Virus genome (UHGV): UHGV-1948712
Reading direction: 5' to 3' (one strand)
DNA length: 8,433 nucleotides
From: a virus
A program made the position numbers and the translations under genes. Below are positions 1 to 8,433 of the stretch, in pieces (position 1 is the stretch's first letter; every line of letters begins with the position of its first letter). The notes below the pieces were generated by a model. The model had not been told where the DNA came from, ran no database searches, and saw nothing but the letters and a program-made list of their open reading frames with translations.

Positions 1-11
1 TTATGCGCACC
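1..11 (-). other. dif-like XerC-binding arm, site truncated by the window edge
   Basis: Window bases 1..11 are TTATGCGCACC, the exact reverse complement of GGTGCGCATAA, which I recall as the XerC arm of E. coli dif (GGTGCGCATAA-TGTATA-TTATGTTAAAT). The central region and XerD arm would lie beyond position 1. Confidence 0.5.
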
Positions 12-49: not shown

Positions 50-283
50 TCATTGGTCACAGACCGTAATCCACTGGCCCAGGACGTCTTTCAGGCAATG
101 TTGGCATAAATCCAGTTTTAAGCGATTACTGTCACCAAAAATTGAACCGTATCCAGCTAAGTGATTAACAGACAGAAACTCATTGAACTCAATGTCATCT
201 ACCACCGTCTTCGCATGGCGACCACAGCGATCGCAGGTCTTCGCACATAACATTACAGTATCGCTGGATGTGAAAAATTGCAT
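50..283 (-). CDS. small zinc-ribbon protein (CxxC ... CxxC), 77 aa, function unknown
   Basis: ATG at 283..281 preceded by a strong SD (GAGGAG, 5-nt spacer, minus strand 294..289). Protein has CDRC and CQHC motifs about 39 residues apart, a zinc-ribbon architecture like the N-domain of MqsA/YgiT-type proteins. No Ff phage counterpart that I recognise. Confidence 0.6.
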   Translation of the reverse strand: MQFFTSSDTVMLCAKTCDRCGRHAKTVVDDIEFNEFLSVNHLAGYGSIFGDSNRLKLDLCQHCLKDVLGQWITVCDQ

Positions 284-782: not shown

Positions 783-2044
783 AGTGGACGAATGATATGT
801 GCTGTAAGCAAAATATACATAATACGCTGTTCATTGCTGTCTGCCTTGCTACTGAAAATCCAGCCTATAAGAGGAATTTTACTTATAACTGGAACTGAAC
901 GCTCGGCATTGCTGAACGATGAATCGATAAGCCCCCCCAATAACAACGTCTGACCATCCTTAATCTGGACTGTCGTCTGAATCTGGCGCTGATTAGTAAT
1001 AATATCGGATGCCTGATCATCATTGCTGATTGAATCAGCGCGAGTGTCGATAGTCAGAACTAGTTGCCCGTTACCCATGACAACAGGCGTTACCTTGAGA
1101 GAAACGCCAACATCATGACGCTCGATAGTCTGAAACGGATTATTTACCCCGGCAGATTCGCCCGTTACCTTTCCGGTGATAAACGGCACATTCTTACCTA
1201 CGGAAATGTAACCAGTCTGACCAGACTGAGTAAGAATACGCGGCGTTGAAATCACCTTAGAGCGTGAATTACTCTGGACAGCACGCAGAGACAGCGCCAA
1301 CACGTTACCATCAAAAATACCAAAAGAACCGCCCGCCGTAGAAAGAGCGCTACCCAGTGCAGAAGTATTAAAGCCCCCCGCAACCTTATGACCGGATGCA
1401 GAACCTGCCGCAAACGATAAATCAACGCCATCAGACAAGCTGGTTTCAAACATCAGCGACTGAATGAGAACCTGATCGCGGGCAACATCCACAGAATTGA
1501 TAAAATCGGACAGAACCGGCAGCAGCTCGTCAGGCGCAGAAACAATCAGCGAGTTATTGCCTGGATAATCCACGACATTACCACCACCATTAGAATCAAG
1601 ATAAATTTTAATCAGTTGCTGAACATCGGACGATCTAACTTTTGTCAGCTTAAAATTTCTGACCGTAAGCGCCACAGGTACTGGCTGGTAAGATGGCTCA
1701 GAAGGAAAAGTATCATAAGACTGGTTATCAGAATCATCGGAATCCGAAACCATCTGTGAAGGTAATTTAGACGGCAAAGAGACTACCGCAGGATTGCCAG
1801 AAAGCATGACAAAACCGTTAGCATTCAGAACAGACTTAAAGAAATCATCAATATTTGTTGGATTAACATCAGCATTAAATACGGTTACGTTTCCTTTAAT
1901 ATCAGGATTAACAATAACAGGCTTGCCAGTTTTTGAAGAATACCGCTGAACAAATGAGCGAACAGATGAATTATTTAAATTAACAGTTTCAGCAGAAACG
2001 CAGAATGAACAGGCAAATAAAAAAGCAACAATAACAGAGCGCAT
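779..2044 (-). CDS. IV: gene IV protein, outer-membrane secretin for virion export
   Basis: 421 aa with clear collinear similarity to M13 pIV as I recall it (e.g. SVPRILT, GESA, VNNPFQTIER, GQTLLLGG, SKIPLIG). Start set at Met 2044 (N-terminal MRSVIVAFLFACSFCVSA looks like a signal peptide) with AGGAG SD at 2059..2055. The longer 779..2137 ORF is an in-frame extension overlapping gene I. Confidence 0.9.
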   Translation of the reverse strand: MRSVIVAFLFACSFCVSAETVNLNNSSVRSFVQRYSSKTGKPVIVNPDIKGNVTVFNADVNPTNIDDFFKSVLNANGFVMLSGNPAVVSLPSKLPSQMVSDSDDSDNQSYDTFPSEPSYQPVPVALTVRNFKLTKVRSSDVQQLIKIYLDSNGGGNVVDYPGNNSLIVSAPDELLPVLSDFINSVDVARDQVLIQSLMFETSLSDGVDLSFAAGSASGHKVAGGFNTSALGSALSTAGGSFGIFDGNVLALSLRAVQSNSRSKVISTPRILTQSGQTGYISVGKNVPFITGKVTGESAGVNNPFQTIERHDVGVSLKVTPVVMGNGQLVLTIDTRADSISNDDQASDIITNQRQIQTTVQIKDGQTLLLGGLIDSSFSNAERSVPVISKIPLIGWIFSSKADSNEQRIMYILLTAHIIRPL

Positions 2045-3146: not shown

Positions 3147-3488
3147 TTAAATCACCCTGTTTGCATAATCAAGAAATTTTTGTTTTAAATCGAAAACAAA
3201 AACACTGATACGAGTAACCATAATAACGTTAACACACGCCTGAAAATGGTCAGGCAATACAGACGCCATTAAATGGGAGAAATCAGCAGGTAAACCGTTA
3301 TACATGACCTCAGCAAGGTACTGCATTAAAAGCGTAACAGTTGTTGTAATTAATGCGACCAATGCAAAGGCGATTAATCCTGTTCTGGTAGCAAGTCGAG
3401 CTAAAAAAACCGCCACATAGCCAATAAACAAAGGAACAAGACCAATAAGAAAACGCAACAATGCAGGAATACCTAATAATAAAGGCAT
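3147..3488 (-). CDS. VI: gene VI protein, minor coat protein
   Basis: 113 aa hydrophobic protein similar to M13 pVI ([13 protein letters not shown].., C-terminal FVFDLKQK). ATG at 3488..3486 overlaps the gene III TGA stop (TGATG coupling). The ORF track start at 3491 is a GTG one codon upstream. Confidence 0.85.
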   Translation of the reverse strand: MPLLLGIPALLRFLIGLVPLFIGYVAVFLARLATRTGLIAFALVALITTTVTLLMQYLAEVMYNGLPADFSHLMASVLPDHFQACVNVIMVTRISVFVFDLKQKFLDYANRVI

Positions 3489-4747
3489 CACTCACCCCCT
3501 TTGCGAAGCAATGAAGTTAAAGAAGTAAAGACATACCAGAACGTAAGGCAATAAAAAACCCATGAAAGAACATCTTTAATAGTCAGTAATTTATCGCAAC
3601 CAATATCAATCTGATAAACCTCTCCGGGAAAAATAATAAAATCAGAGCAGCCGTTACCATTGGGTAAATTAGGCAGCATAGCACCTTTATTTAAAAATGC
3701 TTCCCATAAAGCACCGTGAGAATCCTTTTCAATTCCCAATTCAGAATCAGCTAAAGTAGAAGCGCCATCTAATTCAGAGTCGCCCTTTCCATAACGAGAA
3801 TCACCACCTGAAGGGTCAGCAAAACGGCCAGCCCCCCGCGTAAGATTGTTAATGGAATCGTCAAGACGATTTATATTATTCCTGGTTTGTTCATCGGCAT
3901 TTTTTTTATCATCTGATGAAGTGTCTTTCTCCGTTAATTTATCATGAATATCGCTGGCTATTTTGGGTGAAGCACCTTCGATCGCAGACTGAATATCACC
4001 TTTAGAAAGACTGGAACCACTAGAGCCACCGCCAGAACTACCGCCAGAACTACCGCCAGAACTACCGCCACCGGACTCACCACCGCCAGACTCACCACCA
4101 CCGGACTCACCACCACCGGACTCACCACCACCATTTTGGGGGGTTGAGGGTTTATCAGAGGGGTCAGCTACAGCACCTGTAGGCTTCCATGTTGCAGCGC
4201 AAACAGTACCATCACCCTGACAAACAATGACACCAGTAGCCTCATATTCACAGCCGTTATAGTAGATATAGCGACCACCATCATATGAATCAACATTATT
4301 AAATACACCTTCTTCTGGCGGCTTCGCTTCACAAATTTCTTCTGGTGTCGGGTCAGTAGGTTTTTCATCAGGAACAGAACGCTGAATATTACCAACAATA
4401 TAAGCCGTTAAAGACCAATATTTATCCTTCTGCCCTGGTGAATCGCTGTAAGTACAATCGCCAGTAAAAACAAGACGGAATTCAGAATCAGGCCAGATAC
4501 CCTCATAAGTTGGTTTAATCCGAGTAAATACACTCTGAGCACTGGATTTAGCACCCTGACAAGCGGAGGCCTGCATAGCAGCATCAATATAGTAAACCGT
4601 TATCTTAGAGCCATCCTGATTGGTTATTTGCTTACTTTCAGCATAGGCAGAACTTTGATAAGTGGATTTAGTAATGCTTTCCCATGACTCAGCATGTGAA
4701 AAAGGAGAAATGAGGACAGCGGAAAGAATTAATATTTTCCTTCTCAT
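3488..4747 (-). CDS. III: gene III protein, adsorption/minor coat protein
   Basis: 419 aa from Met 4747 (signal peptide [19 protein letters not shown]), Cys-rich N-terminal domains, long Gly-rich linker, C-terminal hydrophobic anchor. The longer ORF to 4891 would overlap gene VIII and its terminator. Confidence 0.85.
4010..4132. repeat. tandem 15-nt and 12-nt coding repeats (GGGES x4, GGSS x3) in the gene III linker
   Basis: Near-perfect repeats of CCACCGGACTCACCA-type and CCGCCAGAACTA-type units, translating on the minus strand to [41 protein letters not shown]. Confidence 0.85.
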
Positions 4748-4755
4748 AGTAACCC

Positions 4756-4784
4756 GCTTTAATAAAGGGGCAACGAGTGCCCCT
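4756..4784 (-). terminator. rho-independent terminator between gene VIII and gene III
   Basis: 7-bp GC-rich stem AGGGGCA (4766..4772) / TGCCCCT (4778..4784) with 5-nt loop, followed on the minus-strand transcript by UUAUUAAA. Same location as the strong terminator after gene VIII in Ff phages. Confidence 0.65.
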
Positions 4785-4793
4785 GAGTGAAAT

Positions 4794-5036
4794 TCAAACC
4801 GCTTTTGAAGAGAATTTTTTGAAAATACGAATGGCAAGCCCAGCGCCAACCACAGCAACAACAACAGGCCATACTTTACCAATGAGATCATTTGCCTGAG
4901 TCAACAAAGCATCCATTGCCTGACCTGCATAATCAGTACCACCTGTAGCGCCTTCAGCCGCAAAAGAACTTGCAGAAATAAAAAGCGCAGTTGAAGCCAG
5001 AGCAATTTTATATTTAACAGTAGACAGAATTTTCAT
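4794..5036 (-). CDS. VIII: gene VIII protein, major coat protein precursor
   Basis: 80 aa: signal peptide ending SFA, mature part beginning AEG, a hydrophobic core and basic C-terminus KKFSSKAV (M13: KKFTSKAS). GGAG SD at 5048..5045 with 8-nt spacer. Confidence 0.9.
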
Positions 5037-5883: not shown

Positions 5884-6663
5884 TTCTATTCTCCCTACAT
5901 ATTCAGAGAATAATTGACGTGGTGTTTTCATATTCCAGTTAGCGCCAAGCGTTAAATTTAAATCAATAAGCTCAGTTGTTCTTAATGTTAATTCAATACG
6001 TAATTTATCTTTCGTCCAGTCCAGTAACCCGGCTCGTACAAACTCTTCGGCTATCTGGTGCCCTTTTTTACCAGAAACGTGTTCATCATATTTTGAATAA
6101 AATTTCAGACTCCATCGACGGGAGTTTTTACCTAAATAAACTGTACCGCCTTTCCCACATGCGCGACCATGGCGTGTTTTAGCTTTAAATTCGGCGGCAT
6201 AAAGCCATGATCTGACATTTTCCAGCGTAGATAATGAATACATGTAATTAATGTCAATACGTGAAATTTTATACTGACCTGCCATAACGGCTTTATAAGA
6301 CGCTAAATCATGAGGAATATTCAATAAGGATAAAATCCTGGCATAGACCGTCAACATGAGCCCTTGTATATCATCCGACCCAACAACAGAATGCCCCTGC
6401 AGAAACTTGGAAGGATTACCATCAATGTACAAATGTGTCGCTTTACCTTCGCCATTAGATCCTATCGATCGTACTTTCATCGTTGCTTCATGCGAACCGC
6501 GAACAGTCAGTCGCTTAACGGTTTCCCACTCAATTGCACCGTCAGCATCAACGCTGACAACACTCCCCGCCGGAAGCGGTTTGTGTGTGCAAGGGAAAAT
6601 CCCGGTAAGCCAATCGATCACGAATAAATCCTCAAAATTACAAAAATGATGACTTACTAACAC
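5569..6663 (-). CDS. II: gene II protein, rolling-circle replication initiator/nickase
   Basis: 364 aa with similarity to M13 pII (KFLQGHSVVG vs KVLQGHNVFG; NNVVPLIR vs NNVVPLVR). The start is a GTG at 6663..6661 with a stop 3 codons upstream and no obvious SD, so the exact start is uncertain. Confidence 0.85.
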   Translation of the reverse strand: MLVSHHFCNFEDLFVIDWLTGIFPCTHKPLPAGSVVSVDADGAIEWETVKRLTVRGSHEATMKVRSIGSNGEGKATHLYIDGNPSKFLQGHSVVGSDDIQGLMLTVYARILSLLNIPHDLASYKAVMAGQYKISRIDINYMYSLSTLENVRSWLYAAEFKAKTRHGRACGKGGTVYLGKNSRRWSLKFYSKYDEHVSGKKGHQIAEEFVRAGLLDWTKDKLRIELTLRTTELIDLNLTLGANWNMKTPRQLFSEYVGRIEMNQNAILSDEKITKLPRKIQSTYLLWKQGANMKEMLPHNTFYRHRRELLSFGIDINFYCDSPDSNNVVPLIRTLEAKPAEIPLWIYEKGFIFDYNRISHASSWH

Positions 6664-6779
6664 ATGAGTTCAGTAGTTCATTAGTGTTTTAACATTACAC
6701 CAGTGAGCTAGTGAGTTCAAGAGGATTGGATGATATGAGTTCATGAGCATGTATACTCACTTCAAATATTGCATTGAAC
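6664..6779. repeat. cluster of GAGTTCA/GTTCA repeats in the divergent II / accessory-cassette intergenic region
   Basis: GAGTTCA at 6666..6672, 6713..6719 and 6738..6744; GTTCA at 6676..6680; inverted TGAAC at 6775..6779; an ACTCAC inverted copy at 6755..6760. Five pentamer copies in about 115 bp is far more than expected by chance. Confidence 0.5.
6692..6720 (-). promoter_or_regulatory. candidate sigma70 promoter for gene II
   Basis: On the minus strand: -35 TTGAAC (6720..6715), 17-nt spacer, -10 TAATGT (6697..6692), about 30 nt upstream of the gene II start. Sequence-only prediction. Confidence 0.4.
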
Positions 6780-6790
6780 GAGCGTAAAAA

Positions 6791-6973
6791 ATGGCAAAGC
6801 GCACGACTTATAACGTGACGGAAGAAAGAAAAATGAAACTAGAACGACTGGCTATAAATGCCAGTGTAAAACTAGGAAAAACAATTACATGGACAGAGAT
6901 TTTAGGTTATCTGATTGATAACTACTCTAAAGATGCAGCAGAAGATCTCATGTCTGCCAAACAAAAGGATTAA
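6791..6973 (+). CDS. ribbon-helix-helix-like small DNA-binding regulator, 60 aa
   Basis: MAKRTTYNVTEERKMKLERLAINASVKLGKTITWTEILGYLIDNY fits the RHH pattern (basic beta-strand, helix A, G-containing turn, helix B) of CopG/Arc/MetJ-type proteins. Transcribed divergently from gene II. No SD before the ATG, so it may be leaderless or start elsewhere. Confidence 0.5.
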   Translation: MAKRTTYNVTEERKMKLERLAINASVKLGKTITWTEILGYLIDNYSKDAAEDLMSAKQKD

Positions 6974-7026
6974 GTACCACGAATGGTACAAACGTGCAGT
7001 ATTACCTACACTGCACGTTCTTTATT
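6974..7026 (+). terminator. tandem hairpins, the second terminator-like
   Basis: Hairpin 1: GTACCA (6974..6979) / TGGTAC (6984..6989), 4-nt loop. Hairpin 2: AACGTGCAGT (6991..7000) / ACTGCACGTT (7010..7019), 9-nt loop, followed by CTTTATT. Sits just after the RHH gene stop. Confidence 0.5.
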
Positions 7027-7061
7027 GTGCGGATTTTGAACAGCAACAAAGGATCAAAAGG

Positions 7062-7484
7062 ATGAGTAGAAATAACGAAACAAGCGGCGTTGAACTGGTT
7101 GTTGTAGGCGTATTTGCTTTCTGTCTGGCAGTTGTTGCCTGGCTAATGAAAACTTTCGATGTTGAATGGCAAACAGCACTGGAAACTGCGCCTGGCCTGA
7201 TAGTCTGGCTGCTTGTTGTCGGTGCGGGGATCTTTTTCGGGATCAAAATGGAAACTGGCCTTATTCGCTGGGGTGCTCCACTGGCGATCGCCCTTCTGAT
7301 TCCGGTATTCAAGCCAATTCTTAAGGAAGCTGCCGGAGTTCGTGAAACGGGTGGGCTGGTTTTCGATGATATGGTTTCGTGGTATGGAACTGGCTGGGGA
7401 ATGTCTCTGATGTTCTTCGGGATTCTTATTGTCGGATACGGTCTGCTTTATTGGTGGCACAGAAGGAATTCATATTATTGGTGA
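7062..7484 (+). CDS. small integral membrane protein (3-4 predicted TM helices), 140 aa
   Basis: ATG at 7062 with AAGGA SD at 7049..7053 (8-nt spacer). Hydrophobic stretches LVVVGVFAFCLAVVAWL, GLIVWLLVVGAGIFFGI, APLAIALLIPVF and SLMFFGILIVGYGLLYWW. The ORF track extension back to 6915 would cross the hairpins and overlap the RHH gene, so the internal start is preferred. Confidence 0.5.
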   Translation: MSRNNETSGVELVVVGVFAFCLAVVAWLMKTFDVEWQTALETAPGLIVWLLVVGAGIFFGIKMETGLIRWGAPLAIALLIPVFKPILKEAAGVRETGGLVFDDMVSWYGTGWGMSLMFFGILIVGYGLLYWWHRRNSYYW

Positions 7485-7495
7485 ATGTCAATCAC

Positions 7496-7519
7496 TTGAA
7501 TTTACAGGTTTTTTATAAT
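7496..7519 (+). promoter_or_regulatory. candidate promoter: perfect -10 TATAAT with poorly spaced -35
   Basis: TATAAT at 7514..7519. The nearest TTGAAT (7496..7501) gives only a 12-nt spacer, so the -35 is doubtful. About 40 nt upstream of the 7557 gene. Confidence 0.25.
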
Positions 7520-7556
7520 TTCAGCCCGCGCTAGTTTGATATTGTGAAAGGTGAAG

Positions 7557-8132
7557 ATGAGTATGCAACCGAATGAAGAAATGGACCTCAGGAAATTTTA
7601 CGCAGAGGGAACAGCTGACTACTTAAAAACTAAAATCAAAAAAAGCGAACGACTTTTAAAAATAAACCAATATCTATCATTTGCCCTCCCTGTCCTAGTT
7701 GGAGGATACGCATCGGTTGATCACAGCTCCAAATATTTTGATTTTTTAGTTTGGGGCACAGGGATATTATCAGTGATAGTCTTGCTTTCTAATTTATACA
7801 CGCTGGTCATGAAGACTGATGAAAATTTATCTCGATATCTGGAATCATACTCTTTCAATAAACTCCTAACTGATTTGTATGGCGAACTGTCGAGCATGTT
7901 TAAATCAAAGACAGGCAACCAGCAACCCGCTAACCATTTGTTTTCAGTGATAAAATCAAAAGATGACTTCAATGCCAAGGAAGATGAAAAATATGTTAGC
8001 AATAATGATAAGAAACGGATTATGTTCGACATTCTGGTAAAGAAAAATAAAGAATGCGTACGTTGCAATAAAATACCGACTAAATTTAACAAGCGGAAAG
8101 GTTGCACAAATTGTGGCAATCTCGTGAAATAA
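7557..8132 (+). CDS. 2-TM membrane protein with C-terminal zinc ribbon, 191 aa
   Basis: ATG at 7557 after AAAGGTGA (7546..7553); the ORF track start is a GTG at 7551. Two adjacent hydrophobic helices (YLSFALPVLVGGYASV; FLVWGTGILSVIVLLSNLYTLV), a K/E/N-rich soluble region, then CVRCNK...CTNCGN. Very AT-rich coding sequence. Confidence 0.6.
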   Translation: MSMQPNEEMDLRKFYAEGTADYLKTKIKKSERLLKINQYLSFALPVLVGGYASVDHSSKYFDFLVWGTGILSVIVLLSNLYTLVMKTDENLSRYLESYSFNKLLTDLYGELSSMFKSKTGNQQPANHLFSVIKSKDDFNAKEDEKYVSNNDKKRIMFDILVKKNKECVRCNKIPTKFNKRKGCTNCGNLVK

Positions 8133-8143
8133 AGGAGAAACAA

Positions 8144-8335
8144 ATGAGTTATAAAGTAGATCAAGTCAAAGCTCTCTGGCTTCAATTGACTGATGCGGAG
8201 AAAAAAGAATTTACAACATATCTTTTTAATGGTGAAAAAAAATCCTTACGTGAAGGATTCGAAAGTTTTAGTGTGAATAAAAGCACTACAATGCAATTTG
8301 GTGATGCAAACGTCTGCCCTGCTTGCGGAAAATAA
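8144..8335 (+). CDS. small protein with C-terminal CPAC motif, 63 aa
   Basis: ATG at 8144 preceded by a strong SD AAAGGAG (8131..8137, 6-nt spacer), 11 nt after the stop of the upstream gene, suggesting translational coupling. Ends ...GDANVCPACGK. The ORF track start at 8102 overlaps the upstream gene and lacks an SD. Confidence 0.55.
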   Translation: MSYKVDQVKALWLQLTDAEKKEFTTYLFNGEKKSLREGFESFSVNKSTTMQFGDANVCPACGK

Positions 8336-8376
8336 AATCTAAAAGATTTTGGTTCGCACAATGACGTTATGCTAAA

Positions 8377-8413
8377 GAGGCCGCTGCGGGATTCGATTTT
8401 CGCAGCGGCCTTT
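8377..8413 (+). terminator. rho-independent terminator closing the plus-strand cassette
   Basis: 11-bp GC-rich stem AGGCCGCTGCG (8377..8387) / CGCAGCGGCCT (8400..8410), 12-nt loop, followed by TTTT. Confidence 0.75.
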
Positions 8414-8433
8414 TCAACATAACGAGTCCTACA

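Follow-up and report, generated by a model that had tools for sequence, protein, structure and literature searches.

SLATT effectors confer strong protection against phages in type I cyclic-oligonucleotide-based antiphage signalling systems (CBASS), act as the effector of type VII Thoeris, and are thought to form oligomers that breach the membrane. Filamentous phages of the YpfPhi/CUS-1 group carry a variable slot of two open reading frames (ORFs) that was noted previously with its function left unknown, and a CTXphi-type phage attachment site (attP) with two inverted dif-like sites was proposed earlier for YpfPhi (PMC4266046). Here we analyse the virus genome UHGV-1948712, a stretch of 8,433 bp (hereafter the window) that is exactly one unit of a dif-integrated filamentous (Inovirus) prophage of the YpfPhi/CUS-1 group. 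Its slot holds gene 1, which encodes a predicted two-transmembrane (2-TM) protein with a C-terminal zinc ribbon, and a small partner gene at 8144-8335 that the first-pass annotation of this DNA had missed. We propose, tentatively and with somewhat less than even confidence, that by analogy this cassette is a two-gene module of a SLATT-like effector and its partner, acting in abortive infection or exclusion with no nucleotide second messenger. Earlier literature covers the filamentous phage as well as its Xer attP and variable slot; three points appear to be new, namely a link to SLATT at the level of the family, a partner that is invariable across phyla, and our reading of the slot as a hotspot that alternates among defence-type cargos.

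The gene 1 protein itself is not new, its family being already catalogued. It scores 143.1 bits on NCBIfam TIGR04402 against a cut-off of 70, with residues 7-188 aligned to positions 2-179 of the 180-position model, and Pfam PF27874 (Mob_CxxC_CxxC) is precomputed on all of its homologues; judged by these profiles, it is an unambiguous member of the TIGR04402/PF27874 'mobilome CxxCx(11)CxxC protein' family. An exhaustive HMMER search of 1.84 billion representatives (E <= 0.001) yielded 264 family clusters at 50% identity, nearly all full-length at about 190 amino acids (aa), and the mobile contexts of the family comprise the filamentous prophage slot, dif-integrated remnants, a Rhodococcus mobilizable plasmid and an integrase-adjacent metagenomic locus. 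The window protein resembles the rest of the family in length, 2-TM hairpin, cysteine motif and mobile-element context, but its enterobacterial clade is a small, divergent offshoot, to which two of the 264 cluster representatives match at E < 1e-30, the others being 18-29% identical. It also differs in its cysteine spacing and in its departure from the family consensus KEKRxGMRxAL. Neither family name mentions a partner gene. The ORF reported by the first-pass annotation exists, and RefSeq places the same coordinates in Escherichia coli C10 (WP_077684033.1). The likelier start is the ATG at 7563, giving a product of 189 aa, because homologues start at MQPNE and a Shine-Dalgarno (SD) sequence, AAGGTGA, lies at 7547-7553.

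The charged N-terminus, two hydrophobic segments, soluble part rich in K, E and N, and terminal cysteine pairs that had been read from the sequence are all present. Two hydrophobic segments occur in 136 of 142 family members, and the second (residues 63-85) is strongly hydrophobic in the window protein, with a Kyte-Doolittle (KD) value of 1.9. Lysine plus arginine averages 4.9 in the N-terminal flank and 0.5 in the eight-residue loop across the family, an asymmetry that puts the N- and C-termini, and with the latter the cysteines, on the cytoplasmic side; these sequence features fit a protein of the inner membrane with N-in/C-in topology. An AlphaFold2 (AF2) model with a mean predicted local distance difference test (pLDDT) of 83 and a predicted TM-score (pTM) of 0.70 contains helices at residues 5-52 and 59-84 (pLDDT about 90 for both), 87-116, 123-143 and 149-162, followed by a terminal hairpin of low confidence. 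The terminal CxxC ribbon had been described with a spacing of x13; the ribbon is there, and its pairs at residues 167-170 and 183-186 are separated by x12. As x11 occurs in 114 and x12 in 13 of the 142 members, the spacing in the gene 1 protein is an accepted variant of the CxxC-x(11)-CxxC motif. Nearly invariant positions over 150 members are P45 and G49 in the first transmembrane (TM) segment, N101, D143, L160, the four cysteines, P174 and G187.

The first-pass annotation had offered the likeness to 2-TM SLATT-like effectors as an architectural analogy only, and three independent signals (from the window protein, from the family as a whole and from structure comparison) now strengthen it. 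The window protein matches SLATT_1 over residues 20-94 at a sub-threshold 13.3 bits (cut-off 41, E 0.06) and DUF4231 at a likewise sub-threshold 13.7 bits (cut-off 24.7, E 0.088). When 150 family members were scanned individually, SLATT_1 was found in 71 (best E 1.8e-6) and SLATT_4 in 30 (best E 1.4e-5), with SLATT_5, SLATT_6 and SLATT_fungal matched by a few; no other non-self family was matched by more than six, and Pfam scans pointed the same way more weakly, to DUF4231, SLATT_4 or SLATT_5. A Foldseek search of the AF2 model against BFVD, a collection of predicted viral structures, placed SLATT-annotated proteins at ranks 1, 2, 4 and 7 and in nine of the top 50, with probabilities of 0.96-1.0 within the top 22 and TM-scores of only 0.39-0.57. 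A word-indexed protein search with the 150-sequence profile, intended as a bridge to SLATT, returned family members only, and a mention of SLATT in the PANGU paper was considered and proved unrelated. From the sequence matches and the predicted structure we conclude that the N-terminal helix and TM hairpin represent a putative remote relative of the SLATT superfamily.

The comparison with the SLATT effectors (SLATT_1-6 and DUF4231) of CBASS and type VII Thoeris reveals both shared and distinct features. Both have an N-terminal helix, a tight 2-TM hairpin and then cytosolic helices, both are found on mobile elements and, at some loci at least, among defence genes, and their sequence similarity is significant at the level of the family. 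In contrast to those effectors, the gene 1 protein adds a C-terminal zinc ribbon and is paired with a 63-aa zinc-knuckle protein rather than with a CD-NTase, TIR or SLOG signal generator. With no signal generator beside gene 1, its activation route must differ from that of the SLATT effectors. The likeness to nucleotide-signalling systems drawn by the first-pass annotation is not supported in this respect: the cassette consists of two genes, with no nucleotide-signalling enzyme alongside, and where Pycsar genes do occur near a distant family member (locus L017) they lie 6 kb off on the opposite strand and are not its immediate partner.

The conservation pattern of the gene 1 protein could also be that of a non-lethal, membrane-tethered regulator, in which the zinc ribbon and helices sequester or sense a cytosolic factor in an anti-sigma-like manner, with the partner as ligand and no pore. 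The four cysteines, N101 and D143 are the most conserved positions, above most TM residues, and a helical hairpin with a zinc ribbon recurs among the weak matches in the Protein Data Bank (CT398, HP0958). We nevertheless regard such a regulator as very unlikely, given that Pfam and NCBIfam scans gave no match to ZAS or any other anti-sigma family, that SLATT effectors provide the sole recurrent family signal, and that a context of mobile elements and defence islands does not suit it.

The partner gene is the chief new finding. Its ORF begins eleven bases past the stop of gene 1, and its SD sequence (AAGGAG, 8132-8137) overlaps that stop, an arrangement that suggests translational coupling. The product, a predicted cytosolic protein, starts with an alpha-hairpin (LW..LT..EK.EF) that a flexible linker joins to a single C-terminal CxxC knuckle ending ...FGDANVCPACGK-stop; AF2 modelling of the partner alone gives helices at residues 3-14 and 17-28 as a block with pLDDT 75-88, the rest being of low confidence. 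A homologous mini-ORF of 59-83 aa lies directly downstream of, or overlaps, the family gene in all 11 locus types examined. The loci read were those of Pectobacterium, Edwardsiella, a metagenomic locus with two tandem copies, a Rhodococcus plasmid, Actinomycetospora and five metagenomic loci, so that the partner is kept in Proteobacteria, Actinomycetota and metagenomes alike, its ORF overlapping that of the family gene or lying close to it. Across these loci the partner is recognised by the pattern [LF]..L[TS]..E[KQR].E[FL] in two N-terminal helices and by [FL]G[PD]x(3-5)CxxCG[KR]-stop at its very C-terminus, and a 260-aa protein (P0130) is a natural fusion of the gene 1 protein and the partner.

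No Pfam, NCBIfam, PHROG or PADLOC family corresponds to the partner. On the Rhodococcus plasmid NZ_CP091860 (L015, 5518-5733) the mini-ORF is absent from the gene table, although it bears the full signature ...LGPTGSSCPCCGR, and in Actinomycetospora flava (L016, about 7725-7904) it is uncalled in the contig and ends in the full signature ...VGPTGRACPCCGR. We considered the partner as a paralogue of the gene 1 C-terminus, as suggested by MAFFT, which twice aligned it onto residues 145-188; this relationship is statistically unsupported. With the fusion protein removed, hhalign recovered the CxxCG knuckle alone (6 columns, probability 24%) and an LTxxEK match (probability 0.6%), and a column-shuffle test of the partner against the gene 1 C-terminus was marginal locally (3/200) and null globally.

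Both genes are under purifying selection. For the membrane protein the ratio of nonsynonymous to synonymous substitution rates (dN/dS) is 0.014-0.067, and for the partner it is 0.09-0.20; the constraint is also seen in comparisons between copies that are no longer in a phage. Every close relative of the gene pair adjoins a chromosomal dif site. In Pectobacterium, Edwardsiella and locus L008 the pair is intact and the phage genes are gone or fragmentary; the Pectobacterium locus (L005, 7700-8880) retains the pair and about 75 bp of the phage end, at 86.6% nucleotide identity to window positions 7563-8423. There the chromosomal dif lies on one side of the pair and additional dif-like sites on the other, and no other phage genes are left; the locus is either a minimal element flanked by Xer sites or all that remains of a prophage. 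In Yersinia enterocolitica (L013/L014, 8510-9192) only residues 96-191 of gene 1 survive, immediately next to dif, together with an intact partner. A second Yersinia variant (P0029, 67 aa) has the middle of gene 1 fused to partner residues 28-63.

That the pair has outlasted the decaying phage genes at the dif sites of Pectobacterium, Edwardsiella and L008 raises the possibility of an addiction module of the toxin-antitoxin (TA) type, with the membrane protein as toxin and the 63-aa protein as labile antidote, stabilizing the prophage or dif element against loss. A large gene followed closely by a small one, in one operon and with coupled translation, would suit this explanation, as would the Yersinia locus, in which the partner (dN/dS 0.15) has outlived the membrane half of gene 1 like an orphan antitoxin, and YpfPhi-type prophages are unstable, so stabilization would pay (PMC4266046). 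Nevertheless, the small gene follows the putative toxin instead of preceding it, Pfam, NCBIfam and PADLOC scans revealed no similarity to known antitoxin or TA families, one Klebsiella tandem copy has a broken gene 1, and the surroundings of distant members resemble defence islands more than they do regions of plasmid maintenance. Thus we consider addiction unlikely as the primary role, while noting that TA and abortive infection are compatible and that this alternative overlaps mechanistically with the proposed effector module.

Comparison with sister prophages defined the cassette that carries the two genes. Homology to these prophages ends at 7482, inside the stop codon of the 140-aa core gene (7482-7484), and restarts at 8349, just two bases short of where the first dif-like site begins. 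The cassette was found in one of 5,426 complete E. coli genomes and in a Klebsiella quasipneumoniae strain, and other cargos, including restriction-type and Abi-type proteins (Table 1), occupy the slot in phages that are 99% identical (L002, 9046-9800; L003, 9010-10081; L004, 9059-9988). The left boundary in the window has no dif-like site, and Xer-mediated exchange of the cassette is thus not supported; no meaningful repeats flank it either. We read the YpfPhi/CUS-1 slot, from these sequence comparisons, as behaving like a defence hotspot in which defence-type cargos alternate. It shares its backbone, its position by the Xer attachment site and its two small ORFs with the slots of YpfPhi (YPO2271/2272) and CUS-1 (orf1/orf1a), but its content differs: the cargo in the window belongs to a phylum-spanning family, whereas the published ORFs were reported without database homologues. 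A fixed slot, interchangeable small cassettes and several defence candidates are likewise found in the defence hotspots of P2/P4-type prophages and satellites and in Xer-flanked 'dif modules', which the Pectobacterium pair resembles in its placement among dif and dif-like sites; the host element in the window differs from P2/P4-type hotspots in being a filamentous phage that uses XerCD.

The cassette boundary, the differing cargo of the sisters and the rarity of the cassette uphold the earlier suggestion of recent horizontal acquisition, for which base composition is weak evidence. The hand counts that had accompanied it, 13/60 G+C at 7621..7680 and 30/60 at 1381..1440, are exact, and the G+C (GC) content of gene 1 (35.8%) is indeed lower than that of the window (41.0%), but to speak of a strongly AT-rich island overstates the difference. 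Gene 1 is about 1.4 standard deviations low, 5.7% of equal-sized windows are equally low, and the core genes gVI (37.1%) and gI (38.4%) come near it. The region 7500-8340 differs from the phage core in overall GC (35.4% and 41.1%, respectively). At third codon positions the GC content of gene 1 (0.385) equals or exceeds that of every core gene (range 0.25-0.38). Because the deviation is modest and third positions are not deviant, we dropped GC content as a sign of foreignness.

The position of gene 1 in the rightward operon of the phage, adjoining the conserved 140-aa membrane protein, could instead indicate a role in the phage life cycle, for example the exclusion of superinfecting filamentous phages at the inner membrane, where TolQRA or the entry step would be affected, or an influence on assembly or on host envelope physiology. 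All close relatives are in dif-integrated filamentous prophages or their remnants, and a resident YpfPhi gives partial protection from superinfection (PMC4266046). The slot is dispensable, however, with unrelated genes in 99%-identical sister phages; distant family members come from a Rhodococcus plasmid and from loci of actinomycetes and metagenomes without called filamentous-phage genes; and IMG/VR contained no close relative of the family and the INPHARED phage genomes no tblastn match. We therefore judge a life-cycle role to be quite improbable.

A recognised defence system is located within 6 kb at four of seven distant loci, namely HmaA, Gabija, an AbiA-type reverse transcriptase and Pycsar (Table 1), a sample too small for a statistic of enrichment.

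By analogy with the SLATT effectors of CBASS and Thoeris, the gene 1 protein may oligomerise and, once triggered, breach or depolarise the inner membrane. Since the cassette lacks a signal synthase, we propose that the partner could be either a brake that is released on infection or a sensor that delivers the trigger, and that it probably binds the cytosolic helical and zinc-ribbon part of the gene 1 protein. The outcome would be abortive infection or exclusion that benefits the lysogen.

Several results weigh against this proposal. Every SLATT match with a reported bit score falls below the curated Pfam or NCBIfam threshold, the E-values of the SLATT matches in Foldseek are only about 0.025 with no solved structure helping, and structure searches with the gene 1 protein returned no related solved structure. 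The first TM segment (residues 36-54) is marginal in the window protein (KD 1.12), whereas the family mean of 1.88 is clear. Absence of a CD-NTase, TIR or SLOG gene from the cassette means that the classical route of SLATT activation is absent. For the partner, the AF2 model is poor overall (pLDDT 64), and the role and binding site assigned to it are purely inferred. Neither protein matches any model of PADLOC-DB v2.0.0 at E <= 1, a literature search by the family names TIGR04402 and PF27874 found no publication that mentions the family and no published function, and the seven distant loci are a small sample. The module is a well-defined candidate system, not a demonstrated one. The broader claim, that the pair is a phylum-spanning immune system in which a mini-protein, as sensor or brake, directly controls a SLATT-type effector in place of a nucleotide second messenger and which travels between genomes as cargo beside the Xer attachment site of filamentous phages, we consider doubtful.

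Table 1. Features of the cassette, its surroundings in the window, and the comparison loci (positions are those of the window)
Feature	Position	Strand	Basis
Gene 1, 191-aa 'mobilome CxxCx(11)CxxC' protein	7557..8132	+	ORF, TIGR04402 score, RefSeq coding sequence, dN/dS
Two-TM hairpin of gene 1 protein: TM1 residues 36-54, periplasmic loop 55-62 (8 residues), TM2 residues 63-85 (predicted)	7662..7811	+	hydropathy, K/R distribution, AF2
Cytosolic helical region of gene 1 protein, residues 86-162 (helices 87-116, 123-143, 149-162; predicted)	7812..8042	+	AF2 model, family conservation
C-terminal zinc ribbon of gene 1 protein, CVRC-x12-CTNC, residues 167-186 (predicted)	8055..8114	+	conservation; weak zinc-ribbon family matches
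Partner gene, 63 aa	8144..8335	+	ORF; direct downstream conservation; dN/dS 0.09-0.20
Exchangeable 866-bp cargo cassette, separating attP from the last core gene	7483..8348	+	sister-prophage comparison
Co-oriented core genes upstream of cassette: 60-aa phrog_2503 and 140-aa membrane protein phrog_4174	6791..7484	+	
attP region: dif-like site 8351-8377, GC-rich hairpin, inverted second dif-like site 8412-8433	8351..8433	none	
Alternative slot cargo (UM146-type): ECs_2282 zinc-ribbon protein and 159-aa ORF			
Alternative slot cargo: DpnII/MboI-type PD-(D/E)XK nuclease (PADLOC PDC-S35 / Aga REase) and DUF6953			
Alternative slot cargo: AbiJ_NTD4+DUF7014 protein (PADLOC PDC-S32)			
Distant-locus neighbour: HmaA, 1348 bits, directly downstream			
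Distant-locus neighbour: Gabija GajA/GajB, 592 and 416 bits, directly downstream			
Distant-locus neighbour: AbiA-type reverse transcriptase, 150 bp downstream			
Distant-locus neighbour: Pycsar cyclase with E2 (L017)			

The remainder of the window shows the features of the YpfPhi/CUS-1 group, namely its core genes, tandem dif integration and an attP in which two dif-like sites stand in inverted orientation. Encoded on the minus strand are gIV (secretin), gI (Zot), gVI, gIII, gVIII, gVII, gV and gII, all 99% identical to genes of E. coli prophages including UM146, and the plus strand carries the 60-aa gene, the 140-aa membrane-protein gene, gene 1 and the small ORF of the partner. A promoter-like site at 6730-6757 precedes the 60-aa and 140-aa genes, with which the cassette is probably co-transcribed; in Edwardsiella and L008 a p60 homologue directly precedes the Mob gene. 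The chromosome of E. coli C10 matches the entire window over 100% of its length at 99.3% identity, and has the unit as a tandem pair. In K. quasipneumoniae (CP152879; L009/L010) the same phage with the same cargo forms a triple tandem, and in one of its three copies the secretin gene is broken and gene 1 is cut down to 130 aa.

The first bases of the window, TTATGCGCACC, are the XerC arm of dif, and in C10 dif lies at the left junction. The first dif-like site of attP reads GGTTCGCACAA-TGACG-TTATGCTAAAG, and the second, inverted site is completed over the unit junction by window positions 1-11; the matching stretch at L001 is 14400-14512. In single-stranded form, each strand of attP is predicted to adopt a forked hairpin (dG -28 and -31 kcal/mol; z -5.8 and -7.3), which is a putative CTXphi-type substrate for XerCD. 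Positions 8350-8421 (about 72 bp, dif-like site and hairpin) have some 478 matches at about 93% identity on E. coli plasmids, mostly unannotated, and may represent an Xer or multimer-resolution site common to phage and plasmids. An Rfam scan of 6600-8433 found zero RNA families. Elsewhere in the window, gIII (3488-4804) encodes an attachment protein with a glycine-rich linker of GGGES/GGSS repeats, mainly at 3900-4350, which gives a local GC peak of 0.51; the length of its product varies by strain, with annotations from 405 to 439 aa. A conserved 77-aa ORF at the left end (50-283, minus strand) contains two cysteine pairs (CDRC ... CQHC) and is hypothetical in every strain's annotation; its product is a putative second small zinc-binding protein of the phage.

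If the proposed module is real, it would show that SLATT-type effectors can be wired to a protein partner instead of a cyclic-nucleotide or cyclic ADP-ribose (cADPR) signal, which would widen the logic of abortive infection. A function would then be available for a catalogued family of 264 clusters and for a partner that belongs to no family and went uncalled in at least two of the genomes examined. The variable two-ORF slot of XerCD-dependent filamentous phages has been labelled 'function unknown' since 2002, and the idea of prophage defence hotspots would extend to these phages in E. coli, Klebsiella and Yersinia.

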